In this document: one piece after another, positions 27,001 through 39,000 of the stretch | Layout: every line of letters begins with the position of its first letter | Numbering within the stretch: the first letter of the stretch is position 1 | Source: an uncultured Pseudomonadota bacterium | GTDB lineage: Bacteria > Oederibacteriota > Muellerivitia > Muellerivitales > Muellerivitaceae | NCBI GenBank assembly: GCA_963770835.1 | Contig: CAVYRH010000003.1 | Coordinates: 356,504 to 420,503, forward strand | Direction: 5' to 3' | Length of the DNA stretch: 64,000 nt | Position numbers: made by a program

Positions 27001-30000
27001 GAAGCCAAGAGTGCAATTGCGAGTGTAAAACTTAAAAATCAGTTAGTAGCGGCAGAAATAGCTGGTGGGCATGCGTTCAAAGACCACGTTGCCCAATTCA
27101 GTCACCTTGGTGTAAACACGAGGGAAGAATTTGCAGCTCATATAGAAGGTGTGATTAATAATCCCACAGAAGTTAAGTCGCTTGCAAATGGTAGAACAGC
27201 ATATTTTGACTCGAATACTGGAACTGTAGTTATCAGAAATCCCAATGCGGGACAGGAAGGAACTGCGTTTATTCCAGATCGTGTTACTCCAAAGGAATAT
27301 TTTAATGGCTTACATTGATCGTGCTGGCGATGAAGGAGGTCGTTTGACGGAAACGGAAGCCGGGATTATTAAGGAATGTCTTATAGCTGCTGTCAAAGGG
27401 CCTTTTTTTCCGGAGTATGTGTTTCAAACTATTATTGGTTGGGACCGTGTAGAAGTTGATTCGGTACTTCGTCAGTGGCCGCAAAATAGTAATGATCCTA
27501 AAGTTAGGATGATCGTAAAAAATGTTTTGTTAAATCTTTTTGCCTATCCTCACCATAAAGAAGAGGAATTGAAAAAATATATTTCGACAGATGCAAATGA
27601 AATACGGCAATTAGGTAAAAAAATTGGTGAATAAAAAACACGTATGGTCGCAGACTAAAAAACCTGCACATGCCTGTCGCAAAAAGGATAGTGTGCAACT
27701 GAAGTCGAACGGGCATGCCTTTGACCGGCCCCCCAAGTTTGTGCCACCAATTAAGTCACTCCCGGAGTAGGAGTTCCTGAGGTCGTCATGGGCAAGGTGT
27801 TGCCTTTGGGCCCCATGACGACCGCCTCCGGGGCAGGCGGTTTATACCCCAGAGAGCTGTGCGGCCGTTTCGTATTGTACTCCTTCCTCCACCTCTCAGC
27901 GAGCACTCGGCCTTCCCACACCGTGTCGAGCAGTTCGCCGTTCAATAGTTCGTCCCTGAATTTGCCGTTGAAGCTTTCGTTATAGCCGTTCTCCCAAGGG
28001 CTTCCCGGTTCGATGAAAAGGGTCTTTACTCCCACCTTCGGGAGCCAGTCCTTCACCCTCTCCGCTGTGAATTCAGGCCCATTGTCGGAGCGGATGTGCT
28101 CCGGCACTCCCCGTTGGACGAACAAGTCCGTCAGCACTGCCTGCACGTCGTCCGCCGTAAACTTCCGAGCTACCGGCAGGGCCAGGCATTCACGGGTGAA
28201 CTCATCGATCAGCGTCAGGAACCGAAGAGGCCGTCCGTCGCTGGTCCTCTCGGCGACGAAGTCATAGCTCCAAACGTGGTTGGGGTGTTCCGCCCTCAAC
28301 CTGACACAGGAACCATCCGTAAACCACAACCTCCTTCGTTTCGGCTGTTTTTTCGGTACTTTCAACCCTTCCTGCTTCCAAATCCTTTCCACCCGCTTCT
28401 TGTTGACCCTCCAGCCCTCCTCCTGAAGCATCTTGGTAATCCGCTTATACCCATACCGCCCGTACTGGCAGGCCAGCCGGAGAATGGCGGTCGTCAGGAG
28501 GTCCTCATCGGGCAGGATCTGAGGGATATATCGCTGGGTGCTCCGGGGTTGGCCGAGGGCCCGGCATACGCGCCGCTGGGAGGCTCGGTGGGTTTCACAC
28601 GCTTCCCGAACCGCTTTTCGGCGCTTTTCCGGGCTTAGGAGTTTCCCCGGGCCAAGTCTTTCAGGATGCGGTTATCCAGGGAGAGGTCGGCCACCACCCG
28701 CTTGAGCTGGGTATTCTCTTTCTCCAATTCCTTTAGGCGTTTGGCCTGGTCCAGCTTGAGCCTGCACATGGCCCTCCCAAAAAGGATGGTGTGCAACTTT
28801 GAAAGCCTTTGAGTTAATTATTGGTTTCAATAGGATTTAAAGGTGACTTAAGTCACAGTATTGTTGAGAATTATGTCTTAAAAAGAATACGAATTTTAAT
28901 ATCTTGGCGGGAGGCGGCTGGTGGAAATTTCCAAAGCTTGGCGGCATGCGGCGGTATTGGTTGTCATTATTGGATTTTCAGTTTTGATGTTCATGGGGAA
29001 AAAAGTTTACGAAAACGCTCCTCCTATACCCGCCAAGGTGGTTGAGGCTTCTGGAAAAGTCCTTTTCACCGGAGAGGATATCTTGACAGGCCAAGCCGTT
29101 TTCCAGCAATACGGCCTTATGGATTACGGTTCTATCTTTGGTCATGGTGCCTATCGTGGGCCCGATTTTACGGACGACTACATGCACCGCTCGGCCTGGA
29201 TTCAGCGCGACGAGAAGGCCGAAGAGGAATTCAAACAGCCTTATGGAAATCTTTCGGAAAGTGAAAAAGCGAAAATCGGTCAGATGGTGATTTCGGACGC
29301 GAAAACCAACCGATACGATGAAAACACACAGACTTTAACCCTTACTCAAGAACAGGCTCAAGCATGGCCTCCCCTGGTTACCCATTACGTTGATGTTTTC
29401 ATGAACAGTGGGGAAGACCACAGCCTTCCAAAAAATTACATCAAAACCACGGATGAAGTCCAAAAACTCACCGATTTCTTCGCCTGGACCGCTTGGACGG
29501 CATCGACCCAAAGACCCGGAAAAAATTACAGTTACACCAACAATTGGCCGCCTGAGGATGCTGTCGGGAACCGGCCTACCAGAGCCGTATTCCTTTGGAG
29601 TGTCCTTTCATTGATCTCTTTGTTGGGGGGATGCGCTTTGGTCCTGTTGTTTTTTGGCCGTTTCGATTACTTAGGGTGGGGTGGGGATGAGCCCGCGATA
29701 AAGAAAAGCATTCCGTTAAAAGATTTCAAAATCACTCCCAGCCAGGTGGCGACTTATAAATATTTCCTCATTGTGGCGTTGCTTTTTTCTTTCCAAACCC
29801 TCATGGGTGTGTTCACGGCTCACTATTTCGTAGAAGCCACGGGATTTTATGGATTAGATATCCGGGATATCCTGCCCACCACTATCACCCGCACCTGGCA
29901 TTTACAGCTTTCCATATTTTGGATCGCCACTGCTTGGCTGGCGGCTGGATTATTCATCGCTCCCTTCATTGGCCAAAGAGAACCTAAATACCAAGCCTTC

Positions 30001-36000: not shown

Positions 36001-39000
36001 GCGGCGAGGAACAAAAGGGCTCCCCAGTTTTCCGGGCCACCTAAAAGAAGGGTCCAGGCACCTAGAGCGGTCGCCAGAGGGACTAACAGACCAACTTTGG
36101 ATTTAAGAACGCTTGCCCGCGCAAGTCCGATGATCGTCCCAAAGAATCCGCTCACCATTAAGGGGCCATGAAAAGAGATCCAATTGGCCTCGGGTATTGG
36201 GAGATGCCATTGCAACCGCAACAGCCCGCCCCAAACGGCGAGAAAAAGGGTTATTAAGGCCGAGACGGCGAGGGGAATTCGCTTGGAAATTTGACCCATT
36301 TAAACTCCTAAACTTTTGTAGTTTTAGAATGCTTCAATTAGCGATTTATCGATGTGACTTATCTCACGCTTTGTCAAAATTTCGCGAAGGAGGAAATGGC
36401 TTATTTTAGAGTCAGATAATAATTAAAAAGATCATTAGGCTTTCTTTGGCTCAAAATCTGGTGACCCTTCCTATGTCATTTGGTGTCATATACGTGTCAT
36501 TCGAATTCGGTTTTTACCGGAGGGACTACCAATTTAATCATGAAGTCCGTTCAGTGGGGTCCGGGCCTTGGATCGGCCCGGCGGCTTTCGCCTTGTGAAA
36601 AACCTGCACATGGCCCTCCCAAAAAGGATGGTGTGCAACTAATTCCCCGGGAATTCGGCTTTGAAGCTTTCCATTGGAACCTGAAAGACGTCAGGGATTT
36701 GATCCTGAAAAAATGGGGGATCCATTTCCATCAAGGGAGCATTGGCTGGCAATTCAGGAAAAGGGGTTGCAAGCTTGTCCCGATTGGTCCGGGTGAACCT
36801 CCCAACACCTCAAACTCCCGTTACTGGTTCCAAAAATGGGTCGGACCAAAGGCCTGCACATGCCTGTCGCAAAAAGGATAGTGTGCAACTGAGTTTGTCG
36901 GCCCGAAGGCAAGGAACTGTGGAATGCTCTGGTCATGGGAAAATATTGGTCAGGCGCACATACCAGACACCGACTGCAATATCACCTCGTTTGGATACCC
37001 AAGTATCGGAAACGAGTCTTGCTTGGCAAAGTTGCCGTCCGCCTGCAAGAGCTGTTTAGAGAGGCGGCCCACGTCAACCGTTGGGTAATCCACGAATTGA
37101 ATATTCAGCGAGACCACGTGCATATGCTGATCCAGGTTGAGCCAAAGGTGAGTGTGGCTAAAGTGGTGCAGGTGCTAAAAGGCGGTACAAGCACCAAGAT
37201 CAGGCGTGAGTACCCTGAACTTGAGGAGTTTCTCTGGGGGGATAGTTTTTGGGCGGACGGCTACTTTGCGGAAAGTATAGGCACTGTGCAGGAGGAGATG
37301 ATCCGCAAATATATCCGCGAGCAACAGCATGACCAGAGTATGCCGAAAGGTAGAAACCCCGGGCTTTAGCCCGGGGAGATTCATTAGCAAATAAACTAAC
37401 TTTCTTGAATCGAACCTTTTTGGGGGATAATTACCAAACAAGTTTCTTGTCCAATAATTTTGGGAGTGAAAATGGCCGATAAGAAAAGAATTATTGTGAA
37501 TGTTTTTTTTGTGCTGATAGTACTATTGGCGGGAATTGCAGCTCTCTTTTTATTTTTTTTAATGCCGGTAATACATTCTAAGTTTGCAATTTTCCATGAA
37601 TATGGATTTTTGTGGCCTCTTTTTTACATTCTTTTTATTGTTTTATACTTTTTTGTTTTTTTTAAGTTGATCATTTGGTTATTAATCAAGTTTGTATATA
37701 TGAAAATTATTGCTTGGATTGACAGAACAGACCCCCAAAGAAAAATCCCTTGAGGGTTCGAGGTTCAAAAACGCTTTTCCAGAGGAAGTTAATTGAATAA
37801 CACTTTTAAAATACTGGGATTCTTTTTTCTTTCTACGGCCCTGTTCTTTATTCAGAACCCAAGCCAGGATTTTGGAAATATCGGGTCGGTTGTCTCTGCC
37901 ATTCTGGCGATTGTTTTCCTTATAGGTGGTTTCAAATATCCGGGTGCCCTTAAAAAAATCTCGATTTTCCTCCTGCTTGTTTTTTTGGGAGCGTGCATCC
38001 CCGTTTTTCTTTTTCCGGTTGTGGAAATACTGACGGGATTCCAGGTGTATAGCCAGTTGGTATCTAATAATTGGAAGCTTATAAGTGCGATTTTAGGCGC
38101 CTTATTTTCCCCTTCCTTTTGGTATTTGTTTCGTCGAATCAACCCGGACTGGAAAAGGTTGGCTGGCGGCATCCTTATATGGACGATTCTTTCGGGAATT
38201 ATCCATTTTCTTTTTTTAGACCAGAGTTCGTACGCCTACCGGCGCATGGACGGTGGACTTAGGTTGAAGGGGAATGTTTACTACCGTACAAAACATTTTA
38301 ATGATATCGACATCCTAGCCAACTCGGGGACACTTATTAAGGTCGTGGAGGTTCCTGGAAACATCTTAAGCCAGGTTTGGAAATATGACCCAACCAGAGT
38401 CTTGATCCCGCAAGGAAAAGCGGTTCAGGTCGATTTTGATGTCCTTAATACAAATCGGACAAATCTGATGGTGTTTAGGGGATCAAACTCCATCCAAGTA
38501 ATGGAGGGTAAAACCAATATCGGCAAGTAAAAGTCCGATGGGTGCCTGAAATAGCGAATACGGCATTAAAAAAAACCCAAGGTATCCGTGTTACCCATCC
38601 TTGGATCGGGAAAATCCTTACTTTTTTCATGGTCTTTGGACCGGGATTGATCGTGATGGAAGCCGACAATGACGCGGGAGCTGTTTCCACCTATACCCAA
38701 GCGGGCGCGCAGTATGGAACCGGCCTTCTATGGCTTTTACTGATCCTGCTCCCGGTGTGTTATTTCATCCAGGAGATGGTGGCCCGGTTGGGAATCGCCA
38801 CGGGCCAGGGCCATGCCGCCATGATTTATAAGCGGTTTGGAAAATGGTGGGGTCGATTCTCTTTGATCGATCTCCAATTGGTTAATTTCCTGACTCTAGT
38901 CACCGAATTTGCGGCCATTAACCTTGCCACCTCCAAAATGGGATTGTCCCCAATGGTTACCGTCCCTGTTGTGGCGGTAGGAACACTCGTGATGGTTTTG

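Follow-up and report, generated by a model that had tools for sequence, protein, structure and literature searches.

The repeat-bounded nitric-oxide reductase module

The window, the whole 64,000-nucleotide stretch of DNA analysed from the genome under study (G000; coordinates without a prefix are window positions), contains an array of 37-bp direct repeats that are weakly palindromic and show weak hairpin folding (z -2.0 and -1.4). The window features are as follows.

26798..26834, +, main-type 37-bp repeat, the array's first; no leader or cas gene upstream
27663..27699, +, main-type repeat
27722..28760, -, IS3-family element that breaks off flush with the variant repeat; about 1,040 bp remain out of about 1,270
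28761..28797, +, variant 37-bp repeat, left copy
28798..36520, +, 7,723-bp piece of G012 tRNA-Ser island DNA; 0 mismatches, GC 0.478 (genome 0.545)
28842..28857, no strand, Crp/HcpR-type palindrome upstream of norB; 1 mismatch, 44 bp inside the junction
28921..31182, +, norB, single-subunit quinol-dependent NO reductase, 753 aa (PF22085 and PF00115; full-length match to 3AYF, E 1.5e-201)
31217..31702, +, hemerythrin-domain protein, 161 aa (PF01814)
31720..32388, -, Crp/Fnr-family regulator, 222 aa (PF00027 and PF13545)
32438..32453, no strand, Crp-type palindrome between the regulator and ric; 2 mismatches
32513..33259, +, Ric/ScdA/YtfE di-iron Fe-S repair protein, 248 aa (TIGR03652 over cut-off; PF04405 and PF01814)
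33310..33768, +, second hemerythrin-domain protein, 152 aa (PF01814)
33734..34126, +, cupin-domain protein, 130 aa (PF07883)
34151..34816, +, protein of 221 aa, weakly matching a zinc ribbon at its C-terminus (PF13717, below cut-off)
34813..35232, +, DUF488 protein, 139 aa (PF22752/PF04343)
35229..36299, -, hydrophobic protein, 356 aa, without a family match in profile searches
36353..36368, no strand, Crp-type palindrome (1 mismatch) upstream of the gene for the 356-aa protein
36483..36520, +, inner portion of the conserved island-end module; ends 158 bp before the att core, continues in G012, G013, G030, G028 and G022
36521..36602, +, 82-bp mobile-element piece, flush to the right repeat
36603..36639, +, variant repeat, right copy, exactly equal to the left
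36640..36852, +, 213-bp spacer, an internal gene fragment unrelated to IS3; relatives at 76-79% in G016, G012 and G006
36853..36889, +, main-type repeat
40272..40308, +, main-type repeat
43298..43334, +, main-type repeat
44220..44256, +, main-type repeat
44366..44402, -, main-type repeat, inverted; flush to ArdC/RadC-bearing mobile DNA common to G012 (97-99.5%)
54628..54709, +, nearest relative found of the 82-bp piece (96% identity)

The variant repeat differs from the G000 main repeat by five mismatches, and the two types have only their 10 leading (5') bases in common. A first-pass annotation of this DNA had noted that two copies of the variant repeat flank the cluster and that the variant forms arrays in G005, G006 and G007. 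Both statements were confirmed: the variant accounts for 6 of 13, 13 of 27 and 4 of 20 repeat copies in these genomes, and it also occurs in G009 (2 of 14) and is absent from the 10 copies of G012. The DNA upstream of the repeat at 26798 is flush-identical to G009:C14/G006:C3, and at the left flank of the array identity switches from about 80% to about 99%, which resembles homologous recombination. The spacer that follows the repeat at 36853 overlaps two spacers of the other G000 array with 99.9% identity.

The earlier view that the segment interrupts an IS3-bearing spacer did not hold. The IS3 element stops at the first variant repeat, its remainder is absent after the second, and the 213 bp that follow are unrelated to it. 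This element is 100% identical to other G000 copies and at most 81% identical to those in five relatives; since the piece at the variant repeat is of the G000 type, that junction arose in or from the G000 lineage.

The two variant repeats enclose 7,805 bp holding norB, eight further genes and three Crp-type boxes; the description of nine genes, with the families named for them, and of norB as the only one in G000 was borne out. NorB carries the fusion that marks a quinol-dependent NO reductase (qNOR), a cytochrome-c-like N-terminus joined to a heme-copper oxidase-type core, and its full-length alignment to 3AYF keeps the His/Glu ligand motifs. norB is present in 14 of the 32 class genomes. In the protein tree the identical G000 and G012 sequences fall inside an unresolved group with G023, G004 and G020, and the tree names no native host. 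No FNR-type box was matched in the four intergenic stretches scanned, and neither of two genomes searched has nirK over the cut-off or an NrfA-type PF02335 protein. With nirK and NrfA searched and nirS outside the search, NO detoxification is favoured only weakly over denitrification as the predicted role.

PMC1274295 gives the Crp/HcpR-type box a consensus of the TGTGA-N6-TCACA type. Nitrosative-stress clusters in which qNOR goes together with DnrN/Ric and a regulator of the HcpR/Crp type (3AYF and PMC1274295) are alike in gene content and box, and the G000 copy differs from them solely in its location inside a repeat array. The cargo is predicted to be an apparently complete, self-regulated NO-defence module, and because it is apparently complete and holds the sole norB, the array may change what the cell can do.

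A tRNA-Ser island as the source

Positions 28798-36520 match G012:C2:1363006-1355284 with 0 mismatches in 7,723 bp, beginning at the first base 3' of the left variant repeat, as the first pass had stated. At this left junction the repeat end and the donor flank do not have any base in common. Other class matches longer than 200 bp are partial, at 63-85% identity, also much as described. G000 and G012 thus show 0 differences over 7.7 kb, whereas their adjoining core genes are 67-83% identical.

No repeat or repeat remnant lies beside the G012 copy, which agrees with the earlier account, but the neighbourhood there is not one of ordinary chromosomal genes. The copy lies inside a 19.9-kb island integrated at tRNA-Ser (GC 0.47; flanks 0.53 and 0.56), which is bordered on both sides by the tRNA-Ser 5' half, present as a direct repeat of 47 bp (3 mismatches, 34 identical terminal bases). 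The island carries a tyrosine integrase (PF00589, R-H-R-H-Y-type motifs), two Fic genes and a C-terminal fragment only of TraD, beside which a 305-aa ORF gave no relaxase family match. With its tRNA-end direct repeats, integrase, TraD fragment and atypically low GC it resembles tRNA-targeting integrative islands of the kind called integrative mobilisable or cis-mobilisable elements. The G000 copy, in contrast, lacks the att core and the integrase and lies away from tRNA-Ser, a site that carries no island in G000.

The piece lies 158 bp inside the island. The island end is intact in G012, G013, G030, G028 and G022 and cut in G000, where the remainder of the island is absent and only an 87% fic relative was found. 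Because the G000 copy cuts this conserved end, the flow was from island to array. This answers in part the doubt about direction that the first pass had raised, but G012 need not be the donor: the island is itself foreign in G012, and any island carrier may have supplied the DNA. The opposite course, in which the G012 island took the cluster from a similar array, could draw on the foreign GC of the cluster in both genomes and on a NorB that groups firmly with neither host genus, yet we regard it as scarcely credible and largely refuted by the polarity of the right junction, as the G012 end is continuous with the att site and conserved in four other genomes, and G012 holds no repeat remnant.

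The insert is a composite from two sources, and only its left end maps to the island. Its last 82 bp are a mobile-type piece, as had been reported, for which nothing above 96% was found in the 32 class genomes or the examined loci. The join of the island piece to the 82-bp piece has no bases in common.

Cas1, Cas2 and the wider arrays

The repeat occurs in 7 of the 32 class genomes, six of which have a Cas1 match, all of the same Cas1 type; the seventh, G002 (89% complete), has two repeats without one. The repeat tracks cas1 at more distant loci as well. Cas1 (PF01867, 230.6 bits; TIGR00287 over cut-off) keeps the catalytic motifs E, H and D/E when aligned to 4N06, which with 7CR6 is the nearest solved structure, and the G000 and G012 proteins are 98.7-99.8% identical. 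A Cas2-like ORF of 111 aa overlaps the cas1 stop; its PF09827 match (E 0.018) is below the Pfam cut-off, and it has no PDB relative by sequence. The cas1-cas2 pair ends 23 bp before a repeat, and the leader lies in the cas2 3' end. Inspection of ORF lists at three cas1 copies revealed no effector genes beside cas1-cas2, and cas3 was absent from G000 and G012 in a genome-wide search outside which Cas9, Cas10, Cas12 and Cas13 lay.

All four G000 leaders precede the main repeat and none the variant; among the loci examined, the exact variant follows a leader only in G007:C183. Because no G000 leader stands before the variant repeat, capture likely took place in a sister array, with transfer of the block later.

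The arrays sit among integrases, serine recombinases and IS elements, and some captured pieces bear repeats or cas genes. VirB4/TraC-like genes were found in all five array-bearing genomes tested. Five loci of shared mobile DNA hold 69 ORFs, and the 57 that were scanned include no conjugation genes. Since the VirB4/TraC-like genes lie elsewhere on such contigs, the label 'ICE' is no more than likely for this DNA.

Inter-repeat segments (n = 69) ranged from 30 to 26,097 bp, with a median of 1,798. A repeat-free source at >=97% identity was traced for 31 of 223 flanks, and 192 had no traceable source, in a search that covered G000 whole and its relatives in selected stretches. The source was flush with the repeat in 26 of the 31 (12 at the left edge, 14 at the right), although these junctions are not all mutually independent; flush junctions on repeat edges also occur in five other genomes. 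No base was common to the repeat at 20 of the 26 (chance expectation 73%, p 0.83), and in this small sample no base within +/-5 nt was conserved at the 12 left-edge or 14 right-edge junctions as a PAM. Breakpoints lie inside IS3, cas1 and other genes, the end sequences are unrelated, and no attC-like or terminal motif recurs at spacer ends.

Three spacers lying between variant-type repeats map end to end: 7,247 bp in G007 (to G006/G009, 99.9%), 559 bp in G006 (to G000/G012, 100%) and 379 bp in G005 (to G006/G007, 99%). In one further composite spacer the join runs through about 23 bp of imperfect homology. Single repeats flanked on one side by traceable DNA stand at G012:C2:189969 and at 44366 of the window, and Ku-type end joining was found in none of five genomes. 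Sources of the other G000 spacers, sought among the best 40 or fewer candidates per genome in G005, G006, G007, G009 and G012, gave one near-identical match, for an 885-bp spacer, in a count that leaves out cas1-leader DNA, mobile DNA and IS copies. All of the G000 spacer at 43335-44219 recurs, at 100% identity, within a spacer of G012.

Routes to the present arrangement and related systems

Inserts of kilobase size between Cas1 repeats might be no more than junk or the result of decay, and a source match decides the matter. For the 7.7-kb insert such a source exists, base-identical and free of repeats, with the junction at the edge of the repeat; a second spacer, of 7.2 kb, can be mapped from one end to the other. 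The cluster is likely the trace of a Cas1-Cas2 integrase that took up an entire gene module, not a 35-base snippet. We consider it probable that an effector-less Cas1-Cas2 wrote the tRNA-Ser island fragment and the 82 bp between identical repeats, joining arbitrary DNA ends to both edges of the 37-bp repeat without a length ruler or PAM. Island DNA would have entered a cell with a variant-type cas1-cas2-leader unit, probably via conjugative traffic, and Cas1-Cas2 would have attacked both repeat edges as in CRISPR adaptation, with repair duplicating the repeat. The two-piece structure would either predate capture or stem from a later deletion. The block of variant repeat, NO-reductase module, variant repeat and 213 bp would then have been re-housed in the main-type array of G000, through either nested capture or a crossover within the 10 bases that both repeat types share at the 5' end. 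Because promoter boxes and regulator travelled with the module, NO detoxification and Fe-S repair are its predicted functions.

The first-pass annotation had proposed that the DNA was captured at a Cas1 repeat and that the gain was recent and crossed genera. Both points are supported by the flush, homology-free junction, by 7.7 kb without a single difference where neighbouring core genes are 67-83% identical, and by 26 flanks with a junction of this type, but the source had been misdescribed, the insert is in two pieces, and the variant repeat points to a sister machine rather than to the leaders of G000. Counted against our own account were the two-source insert, its internal join without shared bases and the lack of Ku in five genomes, and also the 192 of 223 flanks untraced, the G000-type IS3 piece, the Cas2-like match below cut-off and G002 without Cas1.

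Capture in one step by the Cas1-Cas2 of G000 itself, at a stray variant repeat already in place and from G012 DNA, is the reading nearest to that of the first pass and seems to us unlikely. The two genomes do share Cas1 (98.7-99.8%), mobile DNA (97-99.5%) and the identical spacer stretch at 43335-44219, and the IS3 piece beside the variant repeat is G000-type; but such a step requires leader-independent use of a five-mismatch repeat that no G000 leader precedes, the insert does not split IS3, and the G012 copy is island cargo rather than native chromosome. Rather less likely still are two one-ended integrations, of an island end at the right edge of the repeat and of an unrelated mobile-element end at its left edge, with host repair joining or resolving the far ends. 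The two-source insert, the single repeats with one-sided traceable DNA and the composite joined through imperfect homology would fit; the internal join, however, has no shared bases and Ku is lacking, and four spacers that map end to end to one source indicate that concerted two-end capture occurs.

It is improbable that the repeats are recombination sites or by-products at which homologous, microhomology or site-specific recombination, not Cas1, placed the DNA. Although the company of integrases, serine recombinases and IS elements and the identity switch at the left flank suit this idea, the source sequence at the flush junctions is random and shows no excess of microhomology, spacer ends have no recurring attC-like or terminal motif, the island att core is not at the junction, and the repeat tracks cas1. 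More improbable again is an assembly chimera, or a collapse of two co-assembled genomes. Both genomes are metagenome-assembled, and graph collapse can force exact identity; yet the two sides of the insert attach to G000-type DNA (IS3 at 100%, the next-but-one spacer at 99.9% to the other array), the two repeat types share only their 10 leading bases, the junctions coincide precisely with repeat edges, just as they do in five other genomes, and the contig runs across identical IS copies and a perfect tandem array of 971 bp, which would be typical of a long-read assembly.

As a wider and tentative reading, it is quite possible that a CRISPR-derived, effector-less Cas1-Cas2 is a sequence-independent gene-capture machine, an integron without attC. 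It would sample DNA on the move among genera that occur together, keep pieces the size of operons, promoters included, between its repeats, and hand repeat-bounded blocks from one array to another, and here it would have given its host a new, regulated metabolic trait, its only NO reductase. With a diverged Cas2, a 37-bp target and known donor ends, the determinant of spacer length becomes directly testable. A literature search on kilobase spacers or Cas1 gene capture, with most subscription journals and supplements outside its reach, returned no paper describing them.

Integrons are fixed integrase loci that gather gene cargo in tandem. The G000 arrays likewise hold tandem gene cargo at a fixed locus, but without IntI, attC, whole-gene cassettes or a conserved site at each cassette end, and breakpoints fall anywhere, also within genes and IS elements. 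With a CRISPR adaptation module the system shares catalytic Cas1 residues, a cas1 followed by a cas2-like gene, direct 37-bp repeats beside them, flush inserts with repeat duplication, and sources that are mostly mobile DNA. It differs in inserts of 30 bp to 26 kb (median 1.8 kb) that hold whole genes, where uniform spacers of about 25-50 bp would be usual and G000 has no regular array, in the lack of a PAM, in a leader inside the cas2 3' end and a strongly diverged Cas2, and, set against a CRISPR-Cas immune system, in having no effector beside cas1 and no cas3.

A casposase (PMC8464041) is a Cas1-family integrase that inserts DNA of up to about 4 kb and duplicates its target; what it moves is the element that encodes it, which is bounded by TIRs and has a PolB gene, and the duplication is of 13 bp. 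A predicted Cas1-family integrase and a duplicated target are found here too, but the enzyme lies outside the insert, inserts lack TIRs, 37 bp are duplicated and arrays grow; the nine insert genes include neither cas1 nor a family B polymerase, and both ends of the insert are cuts made inside other elements. Locus F of Sulfolobus solfataricus (PMC4390879) has an 899-bp plasmid-like fragment between two repeats, another case of a long piece of conjugative-element DNA enclosed by CRISPR repeats. There it is a single irregularity in the regular array of a complete system, whereas here long inserts are the rule, and one of them carries a nine-gene module with a 100% identical source.

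The norB insert and its source

The norB insert, the 7,805 bp between two variant copies of the 37-bp repeat, is a composite of two pieces of DNA.

28761-28797: left variant repeat
28798-36520: first piece, identical to G012:C2:1363006-1355284
last 82 bp of the insert: second piece, which matches window 54628-54709 at 96% and runs up flush to the right repeat
36603-36639: right variant repeat

The window contains 9 copies of the repeat (8 direct and 1 inverted) and the whole genome, G000, contains 27. The two bounding copies are identical to each other and 5 positions off the main repeat, the usual form in G000, as the first-pass annotation had stated. 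It was also right that the match to G012, a relative from another genus, starts with the first base past the left variant repeat, that the match holds (0 mismatches in 7,723 bp), and that the terminal 82 bp are foreign to that piece. The upper 95% bound on divergence is about 4 differences in 10,000, whereas G000 and G012 are 67-83% identical in the core genes flanking the G012 site. The donor bases preceding the piece in G012 have nothing in common with the repeat end. At the inner join between the two pieces there were zero shared bases in the copies compared, and Ku was absent in all five genomes searched; together with the composite make-up, this counts against capture as one clean spacer.

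The G012 setting, previously described as ordinary chromosome, is an integrated island: the piece begins 158 bp within a 19.9-kb tRNA-Ser island bordered by a 47-bp direct repeat (att) of the tRNA-Ser(cga) 5' half. The island has a GC content of 0.47, against 0.53 and 0.56 outside. Besides a tyrosine integrase and a TraD fragment it carries two Fic genes and a further, internal copy of its end module; this module is conserved in G013, G030, G028 and G022. In the window copy the end module ends short of the att core, the remainder of the G012 island is absent from G000, and the G000 tRNA-Ser beside pdxH has no island. These observations set the flow as from island to array; the proposed direction of transfer stands to that extent, while G012 itself need not be the donor, since any carrier of the island suffices. 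The G012 stretch C2:1355079-1376600 holds tandem islands at one tRNA-Ser: on its 5' side lies an island with a tyrosine integrase and two left-end modules, on its 3' side a large serine recombinase. In G000, at C4:100312-100600, the tRNA-Ser 5' end is present a second time as a short copy about 190 bp upstream of the intact gene, and a hairpin element separates the two.

G000 and G012 have in common Cas1 at 98.7-99.8% identity and ArdC/RadC-bearing DNA at 97-99.5%, and VirB4/TraC-like genes occur in all five array-bearing genomes tested. On these grounds the transfer route was probably conjugative traffic. The leading-region-like mobile DNA at window 44400-55400, with ArdC, RadC and several toxin-antitoxin pairs, is built of repeated 100-300-bp modules, and pieces of it recur on contigs C10, C12, C16, C17 and C22. 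The riboflavin-synthesis region at window 55491-64000 has a second copy on C25 that matches at 95% over 8.5 kb and another on C12 that matches at 99.7% over 3.4 kb, reflecting either strain mixture or mobile duplication. An assembly chimera as the origin of the insert is unlikely, because the DNA on both sides of it is of G000 type and the contig passes through a 971-bp perfect tandem array (50-bp unit, within a spacer at G000:C3:97310-98280).

Junctions and lengths of inter-repeat segments

Joins made by Cas1-Cas2 integration are flush and homology-free at both repeat edges and come with a duplicated repeat, an outcome that homologous or site-specific recombination would not give. In the whole of G000 and in stretches of six relatives, repeats on the same strand and within 30 kb of each other delimit 69 segments, whose lengths range from 30 to 26,097 bp (median 1,798). 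A repeat-free source (at least 97% identity over at least 70 bp) was present for 31 of 223 repeat flanks, the other 192 having none in the DNA compared. The sourced flanks were flush to the repeat in 26 cases, not all independent, off by 2 bases in one and off by 17-43 bases in four. Of the 26 flush junctions, 20 have no base in common with the repeat, in line with a chance expectation of 73% (p 0.83); nor is there a PAM-like base at them.

Whole spacers could be traced as well. A 7,247-bp G007 spacer, which contains several whole ORFs, matches exactly at either end and so serves as a control of the same size as the norB insert, is present end to end in G006 (99.96%) and G009 (99.90%); so are a 559-bp G006 spacer in G000 and G012 (100%) and a 379-bp G005 spacer in G006 and G007 (99%). 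An 885-bp G000 spacer (window 43335-44219) is the inverted interior, at 100%, of a 971-bp G012 spacer (G012:C4:58850-59820), lacking the outermost 43 and 40 bp of the latter; by its sequence it looks as if it was cut out, trimmed and re-captured in the other genus's array.

The source of the 7,247-bp spacer is an 11.7-kb stretch, 99.9% identical between G006 and G009, which belong to different genera (L088:6764-18500 and L089:6568-18305); it carries glycosyltransferase and cell-envelope genes and in G006 lies near a VirB4/TraC-like gene. Near G012:C2 189969 (L014:8993-10006), one repeat plus about 977 bp sits within shared mobile DNA, 58 bp of which is gone; this is a one-repeat insertion. The spacer at G000:C3:61876-64335 is composite, joined via about 23 bp of imperfect homology. 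One source is represented in this spacer and in two others by overlapping pieces with differing breakpoints. Segments of 24.7 and 26.1 kb lie beside cas1-cas2 at G012:C1:380564-431425. Window 44220-44402 holds two main repeats in facing orientation, with 109 bp between them; the mobile DNA that adjoins the inverted copy flush runs on in G012.

Cas1-Cas2 genes and the order of events

G000 has three full-length copies of cas1, one with an in-frame TAG (G000:C3:47275-48120), and one fragment. The cas1 gene is followed by a 111-aa Cas2-like ORF, whose product scores below the family cut-off, and 23 bp further on by a repeat. Searches for cas3 in G000 and G012 were negative, and G000 showed no regular array. 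Two inter-repeat segments (G000:C3:60758-61838 and C16:29148-37438) end in copies of cas1 (part), cas2 and leader, so that genes of the system itself are among those it captures or duplicates. Of 32 class genomes, 7 carry the repeat, and 6 of these have this Cas1. Records of Cas1 relatives at 94-100% identity are mostly titled candidate division FCPU426. Several of those at 58-71% are titled Patescibacteria or Saccharibacteria, and widely spaced 36-38-bp repeats were present in 5 of 10 loci scanned in this range (L135, L137, L139, L141 and L142).

All four G000 leaders are followed by the main repeat, and among the loci compared only G007:C183 has the exact variant repeat after a leader. As had been reported, the variant forms arrays in G005, G006 and G007 (6/13, 13/27 and 4/20 copies); it also makes up 2/14 in G009. 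The spacer left of the insert holds an IS3 of 1,270 bp of which about 1,040 bp remain, the rest being cut off exactly at the edge of the variant repeat. It matches the other copies in G000 at 100%, but those in five relatives at no more than 81%. The 213 bp beyond the second variant repeat are unrelated to IS3, so that the insert does not interrupt an IS3-bearing spacer, as had been thought. The resulting order, main-IS3-variant-NOR-variant-213 bp-main, is compatible with a history in which the NOR DNA was first captured at a variant repeat and the whole block transferred afterwards, perhaps as a single nested 9.15-kb spacer, or perhaps as a circle that recombined through the 10 leading bases common to both repeat types.

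Degenerate AT-rich short tandem repeats lie immediately 5' of the first repeat (window 26586-26796), and likewise in G006, G007 and G009. Across window 26070-26797, identity to G009:C14 and G006:C3 is about 80% up to a point near 26445, within a 230-aa ORF, and about 99% beyond it as far as the edge of the first repeat, where it stops flush. A captured piece may have served to anchor the leaderless array there by homologous recombination.

Relation to known systems and the norB cargo

The norB insert is a real and recent operon-sized insertion with a traceable mobile source in an apparently effector-less Cas1-Cas2 array, and it tells more than the single-spacer capture from a chromosome first described. 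The array probably operates as in CRISPR adaptation, but has no uniform spacer length, no PAM at the junctions examined and no effector gene seen beside cas1. Its outcome resembles that of an integron, but there are no cassette sites. A casposase inserts DNA of as much as about 4 kb, bounded by TIRs, with a 13-bp duplication (PMC8464041); here the insert size is similar, but the inserts have no TIRs and the enzyme lies outside them. The closest precedent found in print is a single plasmid-like fragment of 899 bp lying between a pair of repeats in Sulfolobus (PMC4390879). PMC8730458 deals with the casposon origin of Cas1, and the passages covered contain nothing on kilobase spacers. We found no published description of a kilobase-spacer Cas1 system in the literature searched, mostly outside subscription journals and as main texts without supplements. 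The array is a new form of CRISPR adaptation and possibly a gene-capture system in its own right.

The insert encodes nine ORFs: norB, two hemerythrins, a Crp/Fnr regulator, Ric (TIGR03652 above cut-off), a cupin, a 221-aa protein, DUF488 and a 356-aa hydrophobic protein without a family match. The norB product is of the qNOR type and matches 3AYF over its full length. The gene is indeed the only copy in G000, is also single-copy in G012, and is present in 14 of 32 class genomes. Neither nirK above cut-off nor an NrfA-type gene was found in the two genomes searched. The NorB tree points to no native host, and the GC content of the cluster is low relative to both G000 and G012. The four intergenic stretches scanned (534 bp in total) contain three boxes of the TGTGA-N6-TCACA type, two at 1 mismatch and one at 2, against a background of 54 sites with at most 1 mismatch in the 4.58 Mb of G000; the passages covered of PMC1274295 give this consensus for HcpR of Desulfovibrio. 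Because the box of norB sits 44 bp inside the left junction, the module looks complete, and it is presumably active.
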